13,707 nt of DNA, taken from UHGV virus genome UHGV-1773339, one strand, 5' to 3'. The position numbers and the translations under genes are program-made. Of the stretch, positions 2,481 through 6,712 are shown piece after piece (the first letter of the stretch is position 1; every line of letters starts with the position of its first letter). The notes beneath the pieces are model-generated. The model worked only from the letters and a program-made list of their open reading frames with translations. It did not search any database and was not told the origin of the DNA. This DNA comes from a virus.

Positions 2481-2768
2481 TTATTCAAAAAATATAAATA
2501 CAAGTAAACACGCCACCACCGGCACAGCAAAATCCATCAGGCTTGCTACATCCCATGCACGCGGATCAAAACCGCCCCACCACGGCATATTCATACGCTT
2601 GCCATGTCCGAACATTTCAATCCAGCGATATTCTGCCTGGGTGTGTTCACGCGCAATGAAGAACGTACAACCGGCTATCGCTCCGTAAGCCCAGTTCCCG
2701 GTAAAAAGACCAATCAGTAGCTGCGCAGCCACAGCACAAAGAGCATGAAGGAAAGGTGTTATATCCAT
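2481..2768 (-). CDS. Small multi-pass membrane protein of unknown function (candidate moron)
   Basis: 95 aa ORF with ATG start. Perfect SD (AAGGAGGAG) sits between the upstream stop TAA and the ATG on the minus strand. Three hydrophobic segments (about residues 5-25, 26-40, 75-94) around a Trp/Gly-rich loop 'MFGHGKRMNMPWWGGFDPRAWD'. No family recognised. Confidence 0.75.
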   Translation of the reverse strand: MDITPFLHALCAVAAQLLIGLFTGNWAYGAIAGCTFFIAREHTQAEYRWIEMFGHGKRMNMPWWGGFDPRAWDVASLMDFAVPVVACLLVFIFFE

Positions 2769-2778
2769 TACTCCTCCT

Positions 2779-3483
2779 TTAACCGATATCGCTTCGGGAA
2801 GTTGATAACAGCTTTAATTCTGACTCAAGTTCATCAACTCTTTCTGTCAGTTTCTGGATATGGTGAATCAGTGGAACAACCAGACGTTCGTACATTACAC
2901 CTTCGGCAACAAGGCCATTGCTGGAAATAGCTTCCGGTGCATCATCTTCGTTAGCTGGTCGCCAGTGTACAAACTGAGGGGCAATTTCTCCTACTTCCTC
3001 GGCAATCAATCCGTAGAATCCCCAGTCACGCCTGTCATTTTCGCATTGCGACCTGTACCACACAGGGCGCATCTTGAAAATGAGATCGGCGTGCTCTGAA
3101 TCTATCGTCTCTACTGAATGTTTATAGCGAATAGACGATGTTGACCGCAGCACAGACGAAATTGCGGGGTCAGGATTAAGATAAAGGTTTGCCGCCGCTG
3201 TAGTCGTGCCCAATCCCCATAAATAAAACGCTTCACGGCCAGTCAGCGGGTAAAAATCTCCACCATAATTACCGCTTTCCAGAGCATTCACTTCCAGTTT
3301 GTTTTTCAGCTTATTATCCACTTCAGTTTTTGTGTATCTGGAGCTGATATCCTGCTTTGCACTGGTCATCTCAGTCTGAAGCGTTGATACTTTTCCGCTA
3401 ATTGAGGAAATATCTTCCTTAGCTTTACTGACATCTCCCTTCAGCGTGGTGATATCTCCCGGAATTACTGTCGATGTAGCCAT
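2779..3483 (-). CDS. Coiled-coil protein with C-terminal peptidase-S74-like intramolecular chaperone domain (tail-fibre/tailspike-type auto-processing domain)
   Basis: 234 aa ORF, ATG start preceded by GAGGGAGA SD. C-terminal half shows the S74/chaperone-of-endosialidase pattern: Ser116...Lys121 dyad spacing ('SSIRYK'), 'DWGFYGLIAEEVGEIAPQFV', 'MYERLVVPLIHHIQKL', terminal coiled coil 'VDELESELKLL'. N-terminal 60 residues are heptad-like coiled coil. Confidence 0.75.
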   Translation of the reverse strand: MATSTVIPGDITTLKGDVSKAKEDISSISGKVSTLQTEMTSAKQDISSRYTKTEVDNKLKNKLEVNALESGNYGGDFYPLTGREAFYLWGLGTTTAAANLYLNPDPAISSVLRSTSSIRYKHSVETIDSEHADLIFKMRPVWYRSQCENDRRDWGFYGLIAEEVGEIAPQFVHWRPANEDDAPEAISSNGLVAEGVMYERLVVPLIHHIQKLTERVDELESELKLLSTSRSDIG

Positions 3484-3492
3484 TTGTCTCCC

Positions 3493-3774
3493 TCACATCC
3501 AGCCACGAAGTTGATGTTCAACTACAACCGCGTATTCATCGAATAATGACGGTGTTTTCACATCATTAATGATGCGCACGTTTACAAAATATCCGTCTTC
3601 CTTAACACATACCGGTTCGCCATCTTCATTCAGCTCTCCGGTTTCTTTGTACACGTTTCCTATCACATCAATGAGAACATTGTTCTGCATCACCTCGTCA
3701 TCGTAATAACCAATGCTATCCATAAAGGCCGAAAAGTCGGCCTTGTTTATGAATTTGAGGGTTAAGTCTCGCAT
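3493..3774 (-). CDS. Hypothetical acidic 93 aa protein, translationally coupled to the tail fibre gene
   Basis: ATG start shares one base with the stop of the upstream fibre gene (TAATG at 3772-3776, minus strand). Its stop is 9 nt before the next ORF start. No motif recognised. The position suggests a fibre accessory or assembly factor. Confidence 0.6.
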   Translation of the reverse strand: MRDLTLKFINKADFSAFMDSIGYYDDEVMQNNVLIDVIGNVYKETGELNEDGEPVCVKEDGYFVNVRIINDVKTPSLFDEYAVVVEHQLRGWM

Positions 3775-5981
3775 TATATTCTTTCTCCCATTTGTGCATC
3801 TGTCAGTTCCTTATGCCAGATACGTAAATTGCGCACGTGTCCAAATAAATGCCTGTTACCTGATATTGATTGACCGCCTATATTTATTGGCCCTTCTGTA
3901 TAACGTTGTCTTGTGTGTTGTGATACACCAACAGCGCCAAAGTTACCGTTTATAACAGCACGCAATTCTTTCTGCTCTGTAAACTTAAACCCAGCAATAA
4001 ACCTGCGGGTTGTCCTGTTACAGTAGGCTTTATACTCGGTCTTTGTTCCTTTTCCGTTAGTTATAATTGAGCGCGCGCCTCCAGAGGTAAAACCAAAATA
4101 CATATAACTTTCATCAGCAACATCCGTTGTTGCGCCAGTTATTGACACGTTAAGAAGCCTTGCTGAACCTTCACTGTTTGGCATTTTGTCCCAGTTGATA
4201 TTAACTTCCATAAGAACGCTTAACGGGGGCGTTGACCAGTTCAGTCTTATTGGCATTATTACCACTTCACTAGCCCGTGTAACTGCCACATCTGATGTAA
4301 CGATAAATGATGATGCACACGATCCTTTTTCAAATTGCGGCGTAGTAAACATTATCTGATCGCCTTTTTTGATCGCCCTTTTATCTGCTCCCATTTCAAA
4401 GCGCCCATACATGCTTTTTGCTTCTGGTGATTTATATGTAAATTCGACGCGTAACCATCCGTTAGCTTCTCTGTATATGACATGATTTACAGCATCCCCA
4501 CCAGAAAAACCTAAAACATCACCAGTTTCGCAATCTATGTAGGAACCAGCTACCAGCGTGTTGCTTGTGCCGTCATCGTTAACGAAAGATATTCTGGGTC
4601 TTAACGTTATAATACCTTCTCCATTTATCTTCTTAACCCTACAGGACAAGGTAACAGATTCATTTGCAGCAACATCAATAACCCTACTGTATCCAGTAGA
4701 TATTATCGTCGCCCTTTCAGTGGTTGATGTTTCCTTTACATCGAACAAACCATATTTAAAACCATATTCATCAACCGATGTGGTTATTTCTATATTCTTG
4801 TCGTCATAGTTCCATAATGAAGGATTGTTACTATTAGTAAATGTATTTGTCCTCTGACCTTCAATTAATAAACCTTCCTTTTCAAAGCGCGGCTCGTTAA
4901 TTTCTGCAAAAGCAAATGAACCTGATTTGTTTATATACGTTGCAGAAGTGGAGCGAGTGAAAGATACAACCTTCTCTGATGGAAAAGTAATAACATCATC
5001 ACCGATAGTTACTTTTTTATAACCAGGAGCGAAACCAGTAATCATTTCCAGCGAATCGTTAAATGGTATCCACACATCAGGAAGCGGCTGCAATACTTGT
5101 TTATACGGCTCCGCAGCCTGGCTTGCATACTCTCTGGCTGCATCCTCACTTGCTTTAGCTGCTGTCTGGCTTGCTGCCGATGCTTGCGCCGAGTTCGCCG
5201 CTGCAGTCTCGCTTGTCTTTGCATTGGTTTCACTGGTTTTTGCAGCTTTTTGACTGTTTGCTGATGCAGTGGCAGAAGCAGCCGCCGCACTTGCAGAACC
5301 AGCTGCGGCACTCTCGCTTTCGGCTGCTGCATCCTGACTGCTTTTCGCCGCAGTTTCACTGACTTTGGCATTCGTTTCGCTGGTCTTCGCTGCCGTCTGG
5401 CTGGACTTTGCGTTAGTTTCGCTCGCCTTCGCGGCTGTTTCGCTATTTTTCGCGTTGGTTTCTGATTTTTTGGCTGCTGTCGCGGAGTTTGCCGATGCAG
5501 TCTGCGAGGTCGCTGCCGCCTGTGCGCTGTTAGCTGCATTCGTTTCTGAGGTTTTCGCCGCGTTCTTCGATGAAGCCGCTGCAGTTTCGGATTTCTTTGC
5601 CGCCGCTGCGCTCTGAGAGGCGGCTTCGGCGTTGCGTGCCGCTTCTTCCACCATTGCCTCAAAACGGCGCAATGCCTCCGGCATGACATCATCTTCCGTC
5701 ATGGCACCGAGAAAATCATTCAGCGTACCTGGTCTGGAACCTTCATAGACGGTAATGGTCCCGGCATGTGAAGGCGGAAAACCTTCAACCAGCAGGGTGA
5801 CGCTGTACTGGCCATACTCAACATCCATGCTGTAACGTCCGGCTTCATCCGGATTTTCAGAAGCCACCGTGTTCACCAGTACCGTGGTGCTGTTACGCTT
5901 TGCCTTCAGTTGAATAGTGCAGTTCTGTATTGGTTTTCCCGCACCATCTTTCAGCACACCTGAGATTTTTACTGCTGCCAT
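3774..5981 (-). CDS. stf: Side tail fibre protein: lambda Stf-like N-terminal anchor, Ala-rich repeat stalk, novel distal region
   Basis: Long ORF. The track begins at a GTG (5987), but the ATG at 5981 gives 'MAAVKISGVLKDG...', matching the conserved Stf N-terminus as I recall it, with GGAG SD upstream. Residues about 120-285 are degenerate Ala-rich 'SETNAK/AAKTSE' repeats. The distal ~450 residues are encoded by lower-GC DNA and end in a LamG/concanavalin-like looking motif ('GNRHLFGHVRNLRIWHKELTDAQM'). Confidence 0.85.
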   Translation of the reverse strand: MAAVKISGVLKDGAGKPIQNCTIQLKAKRNSTTVLVNTVASENPDEAGRYSMDVEYGQYSVTLLVEGFPPSHAGTITVYEGSRPGTLNDFLGAMTEDDVMPEALRRFEAMVEEAARNAEAASQSAAAAKKSETAAASSKNAAKTSETNAANSAQAAATSQTASANSATAAKKSETNAKNSETAAKASETNAKSSQTAAKTSETNAKVSETAAKSSQDAAAESESAAAGSASAAAASATASANSQKAAKTSETNAKTSETAAANSAQASAASQTAAKASEDAAREYASQAAEPYKQVLQPLPDVWIPFNDSLEMITGFAPGYKKVTIGDDVITFPSEKVVSFTRSTSATYINKSGSFAFAEINEPRFEKEGLLIEGQRTNTFTNSNNPSLWNYDDKNIEITTSVDEYGFKYGLFDVKETSTTERATIISTGYSRVIDVAANESVTLSCRVKKINGEGIITLRPRISFVNDDGTSNTLVAGSYIDCETGDVLGFSGGDAVNHVIYREANGWLRVEFTYKSPEAKSMYGRFEMGADKRAIKKGDQIMFTTPQFEKGSCASSFIVTSDVAVTRASEVVIMPIRLNWSTPPLSVLMEVNINWDKMPNSEGSARLLNVSITGATTDVADESYMYFGFTSGGARSIITNGKGTKTEYKAYCNRTTRRFIAGFKFTEQKELRAVINGNFGAVGVSQHTRQRYTEGPINIGGQSISGNRHLFGHVRNLRIWHKELTDAQMGERI
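5133..5630 (-). repeat. In-frame degenerate tandem repeats encoding the Ala/Ser/Thr-rich fibre stalk
   Basis: Repeated gc(a/t)gc-rich DNA encoding reiterated KxSETNAK / TAAKxSE units. This generates the spurious Arg-rich and Ala/Phe-rich ORFs seen in other frames and strands. Confidence 0.7.
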
Positions 5982-5990
5982 ATCCACTCC

Positions 5991-6019
5991 ACAAAAAAGC
6001 CCGCCTGAACCGGCGGGCT
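5991..6019 (-). terminator. Intrinsic terminator downstream of lom
   Basis: On the minus strand: stem agcccgcc / ggcgggct with a 6-nt loop, followed immediately by TTTTTT (plus-strand A-run 5993-5998). Sits between the lom stop (6046) and the stf start. Confidence 0.75.
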
Positions 6020-6045: not shown

Positions 6046-6645
6046 TCAGAATTTATAACCGACACCCACGATGAAACCGTCAGTGCGCCAGTCGCCACTG
6101 CCGGAGCCTTCATAAGCAATATCAATGGCCACGGATTCGGTCGGGTTAAACTGCACGCCAGCTCCCCACGCCAGAGACGTGTTGCTGTGGCGACCGTCAT
6201 CACTTCCGGTCAGCACATCGTGCGTTTTCCCCTTGTTGTCAGTTACGCGGAGATAATCCCCGGAGAACGTCGAAACACGGCTGTAAGCCACACCTGCCAT
6301 CGCATAAGCACTGAACCATTCATTCACGCGTACAGATGGCCCCGCCATCATGCTGAACCAGCGGTTACGCACTGAATCTTCATGCCAGCGGGTATCGCTG
6401 TAATGCGTTTTTTGCTCATCTTTGGCATTGGCATAACTGAATGACGTCACCAGCCCCAGCGTGTCCGTAAATTCATAACGGTATTTCACGTTAATGCCCT
6501 TCAGGTCATCACTGCCTGGCATATCAGTATGGGCCTGAAGATACCCGGCGCTTAGTGTGGACTGATGCTCTGCTGCGCTCGCTGGCGTACCAGCGGCAAC
6601 CAGCCAGACTACTGCGGACAGAATAACAGCACATAATTTACGCAT
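6046..6645 (-). CDS. lom: Outer-membrane beta-barrel protein of the Lom/Ail/PagC/OmpX family
   Basis: 199 aa. N-terminal signal peptide ('...AAGTPASAAEH'), alternating amphipathic beta-strand pattern, C-terminal '...DWRTDGFIVGVGYKF' with terminal Phe typical of OMP barrels. Synteny (directly after J) as in lambda. Confidence 0.9.
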   Translation of the reverse strand: MRKLCAVILSAVVWLVAAGTPASAAEHQSTLSAGYLQAHTDMPGSDDLKGINVKYRYEFTDTLGLVTSFSYANAKDEQKTHYSDTRWHEDSVRNRWFSMMAGPSVRVNEWFSAYAMAGVAYSRVSTFSGDYLRVTDNKGKTHDVLTGSDDGRHSNTSLAWGAGVQFNPTESVAIDIAYEGSGSGDWRTDGFIVGVGYKF

Positions 6646-6669: not shown

Positions 6670-6693
6670 AAAAAAGGCGTCATTTCTGACGCC
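6670..6693 (-). terminator. Intrinsic terminator downstream of J
   Basis: On the minus strand: stem ggcgtca / tgacgcc with a 4-nt loop, followed by TTTTTTATT. About 20 nt after the J stop and about 25 nt before the lom ATG. Confidence 0.7.
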
Positions 6694-6712
6694 CGTATTG
6701 GGGTTATAAAAT

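Follow-up and report, generated by a model that had tools for sequence, protein, structure and literature searches.

The viral genome UHGV-1773339, of which a stretch of 13,707 nucleotides (nt; the window) was analysed here, carries three small genes, orf93, orf234 and orf95 (the trio), directly downstream of the side tail fibre gene stf. An initial annotation made from the sequence alone had described them as a horizontally acquired accessory cassette in a variable fibre-distal locus. Our analysis leans towards another reading, in which the trio forms the conserved 3' end of a modular locus for side (lateral) tail fibres and is not separate cargo. This reading is carried by a compositional break inside stf, by the conservation of the trio next to a hypervariable Stf head, and by the occurrence of orf93 and orf234 homologues in the lateral-fibre loci of strictly virulent phages. 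The fibre architecture as such is already known, while the orf93 and orf95 families are without described function.

The complete trio is found in 722 of 5426 complete Escherichia coli genomes (about 1 in 8), BL21 included, and parts of it in 1851 of these genomes, almost always in chromosomal prophages. A cassette of this frequency, which is also found in the classical phage 21, has two of three proteins without an assigned function. The finding is common and largely ordinary, and the current understanding of tail fibres is not overturned by it. However, if the Stf head, orf93 and the distal fibre are taken as one exchangeable module shared by temperate lambdoid or N15-like and virulent T1-like or T5-like phages, this would explain the movement of host-range determinants between these phage groups. 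For the engineering of lambda-type delivery particles, the same view points to the partner genes that should be moved along with a swapped fibre head.

Conserved trio and variable Stf head

The trio has a guanine-plus-cytosine (GC) content of 42-48%, compared to 53-60% for lom and the genes J to M, and hence differs from the GC-rich tail genes as the initial annotation had noted. However, the last 437 codons of stf are at 40% GC and its N-terminal part at 0.54-0.55, which places the break inside stf (near residue 300) and not at the stf/orf93 junction. Hereby, stf (5987 to 3774, minus strand) consists of two parts. The lambdoid, GC-rich part (5088..5987, minus) encodes the N-terminal attachment domain (phage_tail_N, Pfam PF08400, residues 5-134, E 9e-67) and an Ala/Ser-rich shaft. 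The low-GC part (3774..5087, minus; residues ~300-737, GC 0.40) encodes a hypervariable and presumably receptor-binding head, which comprises an RcGTA head-spike-fibre-type domain and a C-terminal domain ending in ...RHLFGHVRNLRIWHKELTDAQMGERI. Here, the NCBIfam model NF048003 (GTA_spike_fiber) matches residues 374-572 (E 1e-20), and residues ~340-578 are homologous to the RcGTA head spike fibre Rcc01080 (PDB 6tb9, E 2e-6). Stf has neither a chaperone domain nor a Tfa of its own. Residues 197-737 share 42% identity over 548 residues with the lateral tail fibre of the T1-like phage PeterMerian.

The listed stf open reading frame (ORF) starts with GTG (MDMAAVKISG) and contains an ATG two codons downstream (MAAVKISG), so that the true start may be position 5981; the shorter N-terminus is similar to that of lambda Stf. 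In another frame, the region encoding the shaft holds an ORF of 216 amino acids (aa; 5042-5692, minus) with a low-complexity, Arg/Lys/Gln-rich translation, which is most likely a by-product of repetitive GC-rich coding sequence and no gene. While stf is intact in the window, it is split by an IS3-family transposase in the E. coli plasmid p13TMH22-2, the nearest database relative of the window (99.8% identity).

To describe conservation, we compared 80 prophage loci from IMG/VR, with all identities given relative to the window. The N-terminal domain of Stf is 91-99% identical across these loci and the Stf head only 31-100% (median 41%). The trio is conserved throughout (82-100%), with 82-96% for orf93, 91-100% for orf234 and 88-100% for orf95. 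The trio is therefore a conserved frame around a hypervariable receptor-binding head, which is the opposite of a variable cargo locus, and the variability that had been ascribed to the trio belongs to the stf head. Gene content downstream of stf could be judged in 71 of the 80 loci. Hereby, 50 loci carry the 234-aa gene together with orf95, 19 carry a 346-aa alternative distal gene together with orf95, and in two a second, classical Stf with its Tfa comes after the alternative distal gene; a locus without a distal gene was not found among the 71. Some E. coli prophages (L022, 7347-9382; L029, 7347-9376) have the order stf, orf93 and 346-aa distal fibre, followed by a second full side tail fibre gene (phage_tail_N plus Collar) and Tfa (Caudo_TAP), with no orf95; these prophages carry two different side-fibre sets in tandem.

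By sequence comparison, the distal ~60% of stf, orf93 and orf234 were shown to form one unit that is homologous to lateral-fibre loci of T1-like and T5-like virulent coliphages. The earlier proposal of an acquired module can be kept as far as the lower-GC mosaic DNA is concerned, but the GC break and the T1-like homology extend the mosaic unit into stf. Homologues of orf93 were found in 182 phage records, covering lambdoid, Drexlerviridae, Dhillonvirus, Tequintavirus and Vequintavirus groups, and full-length homologues of orf234 in about 45 records, mostly T1-like. In the rV5-like phage LL12, only the fibre and an orf93-like gene are present, with no distal gene.

The trio follows stf on the same strand, with orf93 at 3774 to 3493, orf234 at 3483 to 2779 and orf95 at 2768 to 2481 (all minus). 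The stf/orf93 junction reads TAATG, in which the TAA of stf and the ATG of orf93 share 1 nt. The spacer between orf93 and orf234 has 9 nt (TGA-GGGAGACAA-ATG), the one between orf234 and orf95 10 nt (TAA-AGGAGGAGTA-ATG). By sequence reading, Shine-Dalgarno sites are present for orf93 (GGGAG, 3785..3789, within the 3' end of stf and 10 nt before the ATG), for orf234 (GGGAG, 3488..3492, in the 9-nt spacer) and for orf95 (AGGAGG, 2773..2778, in the 10-nt spacer; all minus). After orf95, a 10-bp hairpin of a bidirectional intrinsic terminator (2449-2475) faces the end of sopB and closes the late operon; with -19.2 kcal/mol, it stands at z = -5.9 compared to shuffled sequence. In all these respects the initial annotation was accurate, including its view that the trio is tightly coupled to stf and ends at a terminator; co-transcription with stf is predicted. 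The 9-nt spacer before the distal gene recurs in nearly every related prophage locus that has a distal gene, and a spacer of 10-13 nt before orf95 recurs in related loci of the 234-aa type, so that the layout is not due to chance. Moreover, the median ratios of nonsynonymous to synonymous substitution rates (dN/dS) of 0.24 for orf93 (80 pairs), 0.19 for orf234 (45 pairs) and 0.13 for orf95 (65 pairs) indicate purifying selection, and all three are therefore real genes. A weak sigma-70-like site (CTGACA-17-AAGAAT, 9/12 matches, 3806-3778, minus) lies inside stf just before the orf93 start; since promoter-like sites are no more frequent in the region than in shuffled sequence, it is probably meaningless. 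An Rfam scan of the window matched no RNA family.

The probable fibre partner orf93 and the putative distal subunit orf234

The orf93 gene (3493..3774, minus) encodes an acidic alpha/beta protein of 10.7 kDa with an isoelectric point (pI) of 4.24, which matches phrog_1361 (E 1e-43) and was modelled by AlphaFold2 with a predicted local distance difference test score (pLDDT) of 82.5. None of the three proteins matches Pfam PF02413 (Caudo_TAP, lambda Tfa), in line with the earlier statement that no lambda Tfa-like ORF is present; for orf93 and 21 of its relatives this holds even at E <= 1, while the true Tfa of related prophages, as positive comparison, matches at E 1e-28. No match to orf93 was obtained in Pfam, NCBIfam or PADLOC, Pfam scans of the members of its alignment were empty as well, and profile and single-sequence searches against the PDB returned nothing. 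An exhaustive HMMER search yielded only 45 representative clusters, which characterizes orf93 as a small, phage-restricted family. The one large protein hit by this search, P0277 with 2928 aa, was rejected as a candidate domain fusion with orf93, as it is repetitive and adhesin-like and matches only a short GEPxCVKEDG string. A literature search for a function of the small genes found none for orf93 or orf95.

In the related loci examined, virulent phages included, orf93 always lies directly 3' of a GTA_spike_fiber-type fibre. The NF048003 model scored above its curated cut-off in eight of eight fibres upstream of orf93-like genes, among them those of the window, PeterMerian, IrisVonRoten, phage 21, LL12, mar004NP2 and a Comamonas kerstersii prophage. 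In prophages with both fibre types, Tfa stands beside the collar-type Stf and orf93 beside the spike-fibre type, and orf93 is kept whether or not a distal fibre gene follows. The C. kerstersii prophage (L100, 3551-5294) encodes a 388-aa GTA_spike_fiber protein, a 95-aa remote homologue of orf93 (phrog_18574; hhalign probability 85% against the orf93 profile) and a homologue of orf95, with 4-nt overlaps at both junctions. Thus, the linkage of fibre, orf93 and orf95 reaches the betaproteobacteria. From this constant association we infer that orf93 is an assembly or joint partner of the spike-fibre-type fibre. As such, it may allow fibres of this type to accept interchangeable distal fibres.

It is possible, though to us not the better guess, that orf93 acts purely as a Tfa-like assembly chaperone, which would be absent from the virion and play no part in the docking of orf234. 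It takes the position of Tfa and is translationally coupled, it is small and acidic (pI 4.2), it occurs both in loci that have a distal fibre gene and in loci that lack one, and the classical Stf in the same prophages uses Tfa instead. However, orf93 does not co-vary with the hypervariable head. Moreover, the gene lies between the two fibre genes, mirroring a physical order of the kind known for T4 genes 34-35-36. The orf234-type docking peptide described below is found only in phage groups that have orf93, and the near-invariant C-terminal residues R90 and W92, which lie in a low-confidence tail of the model, look like a partner-binding segment. The one virion proteome found for a phage with the module comprises only 5-8 detected proteins per phage (PMC6563131).

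The orf234 gene (2779..3483, minus) is read from its sequence as encoding a minimal distal (branch or tip) fibre subunit, the smallest distal fibre among those compared. The whole protein corresponds to the C-terminal positions 1147-1384 of phrog_3299 (E 5e-139), and several other tail-fibre PHROGs match as well. Its conserved N-terminus, residues 1-26 (3406..3483, minus), is a predicted docking peptide, MATSTVIPGDITTLKGDVSKAKEDIS. These first ~26 residues (MATSTVIPGDITTLK...) recur in gp24 of IrisVonRoten (574 aa) and in the distal proteins of PeterMerian (231 aa) and 2G7b (346 aa), which differ completely between this peptide and the C-terminal S74 domain. The consensus M[AV]TxTVIPxDIxxLK is shared by the 234-, 231-, 346- and 574-aa distal proteins. 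All phage groups in which the peptide was seen gave orf93 matches as well; in DT571/2-type fibres, the match is confined to the segment that follows it. The phage_tail_N domain is confined to stf and absent from orf234.

The C-terminal end of orf234 (residues 116-234 of 234; 2782..3138, minus) is a Peptidase_S74 intramolecular chaperone domain with a predicted self-cleavage site at T115|S116 (S116 codon 3136-3138, K121 codon 3121-3123). Pfam PF13884 matches residues 116-172 with 27.5 bits, above the gathering cut-off of 22, which is also passed by the counterparts from PeterMerian and 2G7b. The motif S116-S-I-R-Y-K121 fits the catalytic Ser-Lys dyad (S-x4-K) known from self-cleaving domains of this type and aligns with SDSRLK of IrisVonRoten gp24 and with the motif of DT57C LtfA; 52 related ORFs retain SSIRYK, with SDRDLK at this place in the 346-aa type. 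In addition, the C-terminal half aligns with the C-terminus of DT57C LtfA (8hqz_d, E 5e-6) and the N-terminal half with fibre-shaft repeats (LtfA) and the P22 gp26 coiled coil. The chaperone domain is hence preceded by coiled-coil and fibre-shaft motifs, with only ~45 residues between the coiled coil and the domain, and cleavage at T115|S116 would leave a mature subunit of 12.3 kDa. A conserved anchor, a variable middle part and a self-cleaving chaperone make up the standard layout of receptor-binding fibres, which is why orf234 is read as a distal fibre.

Alternatively, orf234 could be a folding chaperone acting in trans on Stf instead of a structural subunit, which we regard as unlikely. The only Pfam domain of orf234 is indeed S74, the 'chaperone of endosialidase', Stf comes without a chaperone of its own, orf234 is near-invariant as a general helper would be, and some database names agree, namely 'chaperone of endosialidase' and 'putative lateral tail fiber chaperone'. 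These annotations most likely just repeat the name of the Pfam domain; further database names are 'hypothetical protein' and 'tail fiber domain-containing protein'. S74 domains, however, act in cis on the upstream polypeptide (PMC4728585 and references therein), and orf234 has its own N-terminal part of 115 residues with fibre-shaft coiled-coil motifs. Furthermore, an Stf head of this kind is made by phage 21-type loci, which have no orf234, and the 346-aa and 574-aa alternatives hold large extra domains between N-terminal peptide and S74.

The membrane protein orf95 and the proposed model

The orf95 gene (2481..2768, minus; phrog_1443, E 5e-57) encodes a small membrane protein with predicted helices at residues 4-23, 26-53 and 74-94, and AlphaFold2 models it as three helices (pLDDT 94). 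An alignment of 67 sequences contains 21 invariant positions, mostly in the loop motif REHTQAEYRW...G.R...PWWGGF..R.W. Searches of Pfam, NCBIfam, the PDB (single-sequence or profile) and PADLOC found no relative, and PADLOC-DB (anti-phage defence) gave no match for any of the three proteins of the trio at E <= 0.1. By sequence reading, the N-terminus MDITPFLHALCAV has neither a basic n-region nor an [LVI][ASTVI][GAS]C lipobox and thus is no lipoprotein signal peptide.

The orf95 family is large, with 573 clusters in a protein search and 70 species-level loci over gamma-, beta- and alphaproteobacteria and Desulfovibrio. In phage-derived contexts, the gene lies directly 3' of receptor-binding genes, frequently with a 4-nt overlap. 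It follows an S74 fibre and also a Tail_spike_N spike in Leclercia, a pectate-lyase spike with S74 domain in Desulfovibrio, a spike-fibre plus LamG protein in Chelativorans, fibre or spike genes in Citrobacter, Aeromonas salmonicida and Comamonas, a Tfa gene in Halomonas phiHAP-1, and stf plus the 92-aa gene in phage 21. It is found between two tailspike genes in Salmonella and between a tailspike and a fibre gene in the Cobetia phage Carin-5. It is missing where the module occurs in T1-like and T5-like phages. We dropped the idea of a gene restricted to temperate phages, since orf95 homologues also turned up in the large phage Carin-5 and large phages of Aeromonas and Salmonella gave partial matches. 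The linkage to receptor-binding genes, which spans three proteobacterial classes and Desulfovibrio, is the only consistent signal, and we guess from it, with low confidence, that orf95 acts at the envelope level, e.g. by excluding superinfecting phages or masking the receptor. As a generic envelope factor, it might for example prevent DNA entry or change how surface glycans are displayed, whatever receptor the neighbouring fibre uses. On this further reading, which we hold to be less probable than not, orf95 (PHROG 1443) would represent an undescribed, very widespread class of small inner-membrane proteins that was taken over from a cellular gene and kept translationally coupled to the 3' end of receptor-binding genes by phages of several morphotypes. 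On a smaller scale, orf93 (PHROG 1361) may represent a novel type of fibre joint protein.

That orf95 is instead a holin-like or lysis-timing protein, or another late lytic factor, appears improbable. It is encoded in the late operon with tight coupling, stands amid structural genes even in Carin-5, and one of 67 relatives scanned against Pfam weakly matched Phage_holin_8. This single match is below any useful threshold, however, and the gene stands at the end of the tail-fibre operon and not in a lysis cassette, and its product has no charged C-terminal tail. Moreover, T1-like and T5-like phages with the other genes of the module do without orf95, and it has conserved chromosomal homologues.

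The accessory reading of the initial annotation, i.e. a horizontally acquired lysogenic-conversion cassette that is independent of the fibre and expressed in the lysogen, has become similarly improbable for the trio as a whole. It draws on the GC content below that of the tail genes, on the morons that N15-like and lambdoid phages carry at the sopAB-adjacent position, with sitABCD after orf95 in phage 21 and Lambda_2E9, on the orf95 homologues outside phages and on the promoter-like site at 3806-3778. However, both the low-GC block and the homology unit start inside stf, the trio is the conserved and not the variable part of the locus, and homologues of orf93 and orf234 are part of lateral-fibre loci in T1-like and T5-like phages, which are strictly virulent. 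Separate promoters would not fit into the overlaps and the spacers of 9-10 nt, and promoter-like sites are no commoner here than in shuffled sequence; a PADLOC match is lacking. At least two of the three genes, orf93 and orf234, are assigned to the fibre apparatus, and only orf95 of the trio could be a conversion- or exclusion-type gene. That a single long tail-fibre gene was disrupted and left the three ORFs as its fragments is hardly conceivable. It is true that orf234 aligns with the last 238 of 1385 phrog_3299 positions, and single-polypeptide and multi-gene lateral fibres both exist (PMC8594841, S3 Fig legend), but each ORF has its own start codon and Shine-Dalgarno site and is under purifying selection, and orf93 and orf95 show no fibre-like sequence features. 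At least four phage groups keep the genes intact and separate, and the spacing is the same in lambdoid, T1-like and T5-like phages.

If the trio is the 3' end of the fibre locus, stf, orf93, orf234 and orf95 would be expressed late and translated in a coupled fashion. Stf would trimerize via its shaft, and orf93 would either assist assembly or remain bound as a small joint protein. Aided by its own chaperone domain, orf234 would trimerize, whereupon the domain would cleave itself off at T115|S116. The resulting 12-kDa subunit would dock by its N-terminal peptide on the Stf/orf93 end, giving rise to a second, short fibre (branch or tip) of the kind suggested for IrisVonRoten gp22/gp24 and DT57C LtfA/LtfB; the contact of orf234 with Stf/orf93 is a prediction. 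As the weakest step, orf95 would not enter the virion and would most likely reside in the envelope of the producing or lysogenic cell, where it might act in superinfection exclusion or surface-receptor masking.

Several observations weigh against this picture. With regard to orf93, the predicted fold gave no informative match and no relative of known function, the protein lacks the co-variation with the head that is expected of a tip-specific chaperone, and its presence in the stf-orf93-orf95 loci of phage 21 and Lambda_2E9, which have no distal gene, means that it is not solely a docking adaptor. For its part, orf234 is near-invariant (91-100%), unlike a typical receptor-binding tip, and its mature part has only 115 residues; it may bind something conserved or be mainly structural. 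The topology of orf95 is uncertain, as the three helices of the AlphaFold2 model compare with two strongly hydrophobic segments by hydropathy and an amphipathic middle helix, and the phage 21 record gives two transmembrane domains. Homologues of orf95 with 45-61% identity occur in non-phage chromosomal neighbourhoods (L004, 6001-6309; L099, L101, L103; L157, L160, L146), next to pirin and RIO1 kinase genes in Aeromonas and after ligA or pnp in sphingomonads and other alphaproteobacteria, which suggests a cellular origin or function of the family. With such homologues, and with far higher conservation than is usual for exclusion proteins, orf95 is unlike a classic arms-race exclusion protein.

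The window as a whole belongs to an N15-like or lambdoid phage-plasmid and resembles sopAB-carrying phage-plasmids of 45-50 kb such as PhiR46_1. The late tail genes M, L, K, I, J, lom and stf are on the minus strand, sopA and sopB on the plus strand. In p13TMH22-2, the ParB/SopB gene is present in two identical copies. The lom gene (6046-6645; Ail_Lom, E 6e-128) is flanked by terminator-like hairpins at 5998-6019 and 6675-6694 (minus), one after J and one after lom, which fits lom as a separately insulated moron between J and stf.

Comparison with known systems

The gene order of the window is also that of the T1-like Drexlerviridae phage PeterMerian (Bas05), in which bas05_0031, bas05_0030 and bas05_0029 correspond to the fibre (42% identity), a 92-aa protein (48%) and a 231-aa protein (55%). 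Hereby, fibre and 92-aa gene are separated by 0 nt and the 231-aa gene is preceded by a 12-nt spacer, and the fibre has the GTA_spike_fiber head found in the window stf. Differences are the N-terminal virion-attachment part, which is of another type than the lambdoid phage_tail_N of the window, the lack of orf95, and the annotation of the third gene as a chaperone.

In the T5-like phage IrisVonRoten, gp22 has the spike-fibre head, gp23 is a 92-aa homologue of orf93 (40% identity), and gp24 follows 9 nt on, with an N-terminal peptide and a C-terminal S74 domain as in orf234. In contrast to orf234, gp24 has 574 aa with two large receptor-binding domains and is T-shaped; orf95 is absent. In the BASEL work (PMC8594841; PMC11990801, Fig 12B legend and the section on dual receptor-binding domains), gp24 was modelled as docking on the proximal gp22, whose C-terminus bears a galectin-like domain. 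Lateral fibres are described there as made of one or several polypeptides, and the 92-aa protein is given no role in either paper. The same order of fibre, 92-aa orf93 homologue (38-40% across the T5-like pair), 9 nt and distal fibre gene is found in the T5-like phage vB_Eco_mar004NP2. The distal fibre region of this phage (L094, 4789-6561) comprises three short 'tail fiber protein' genes of 297, 750 and 648 nt, which may reflect a frameshift or a genuine split.

Two-part or branched lateral fibres have been established by genetics for DT57C and DT571/2 (PMC4728585), with indirect support from cryo-electron microscopy (PMC10713586). In their LtfA/LtfB system, an S74-bearing second fibre protein attaches via the first; the S74 domain of orf234 aligns with LtfA, and an attachment of this kind is only predicted for the window. 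In DT57C and DT571/2, both Ltf proteins carry S74, whereas in the window only the distal protein does. Furthermore, DT571/2 has no match to the docking peptide of orf234 (residues 1-26), and neither an orf93-type gene nor a spike-fibre head was seen in the literature on these two phages.

Lambda Stf/Tfa shares with the window a small coupled gene directly 3' of stf and the same N-terminal attachment domain of Stf. However, orf93 is half the size of lambda Tfa, has a different predicted fold and shows no Caudo_TAP match. In phage 21 (CPT_21_22, CPT_21_23 and CPT_21_24, named side tail fibre, hypothetical protein and putative membrane protein, respectively), a spike-fibre-type Stf is followed by an orf93 homologue of the 92-aa subfamily and by an orf95 homologue (90.5% identity). 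The locus of Lambda_2E9 is near-identical to that of phage 21, with an orf93 homologue of ~50% identity. Both differ from the window in that they have no distal fibre gene and carry sitABCD in place of sopBA. In phage 21- and Lambda_2E9-type loci (L002, 1-2876; L165, 4386-7835), this manganese/iron transporter operon stands right downstream of the orf95 homologue on the opposite strand, and this position is the true cargo site of the locus.

Rcc01080 of RcGTA (PDB 6tb9), although homologous to the head region of stf, is a capsid spike and not a tail fibre, and we know of no orf93- or orf95-like partner in that system. The exclusion lipoproteins Cor and Llp resemble orf95 in their position beside a receptor-binding gene, which orf95 shows in E. 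coli, Leclercia, Salmonella, Citrobacter, Aeromonas, Comamonas, Chelativorans, Desulfovibrio, Halomonas and Cobetia. In contrast to them, orf95 has no lipobox and is predicted to be an integral three-helix bundle. The telocin/immunity loci of Klebsiella telomere phages (PMC12042878), considered as an analogue of a sopAB-adjacent locus, were rejected, as they are bacteriocin-plus-immunity pairs with nothing alike in the trio. In conclusion, the locus is a lambdoid phage-plasmid member of a known fibre architecture, to which two uncharacterised but conserved partners are added.

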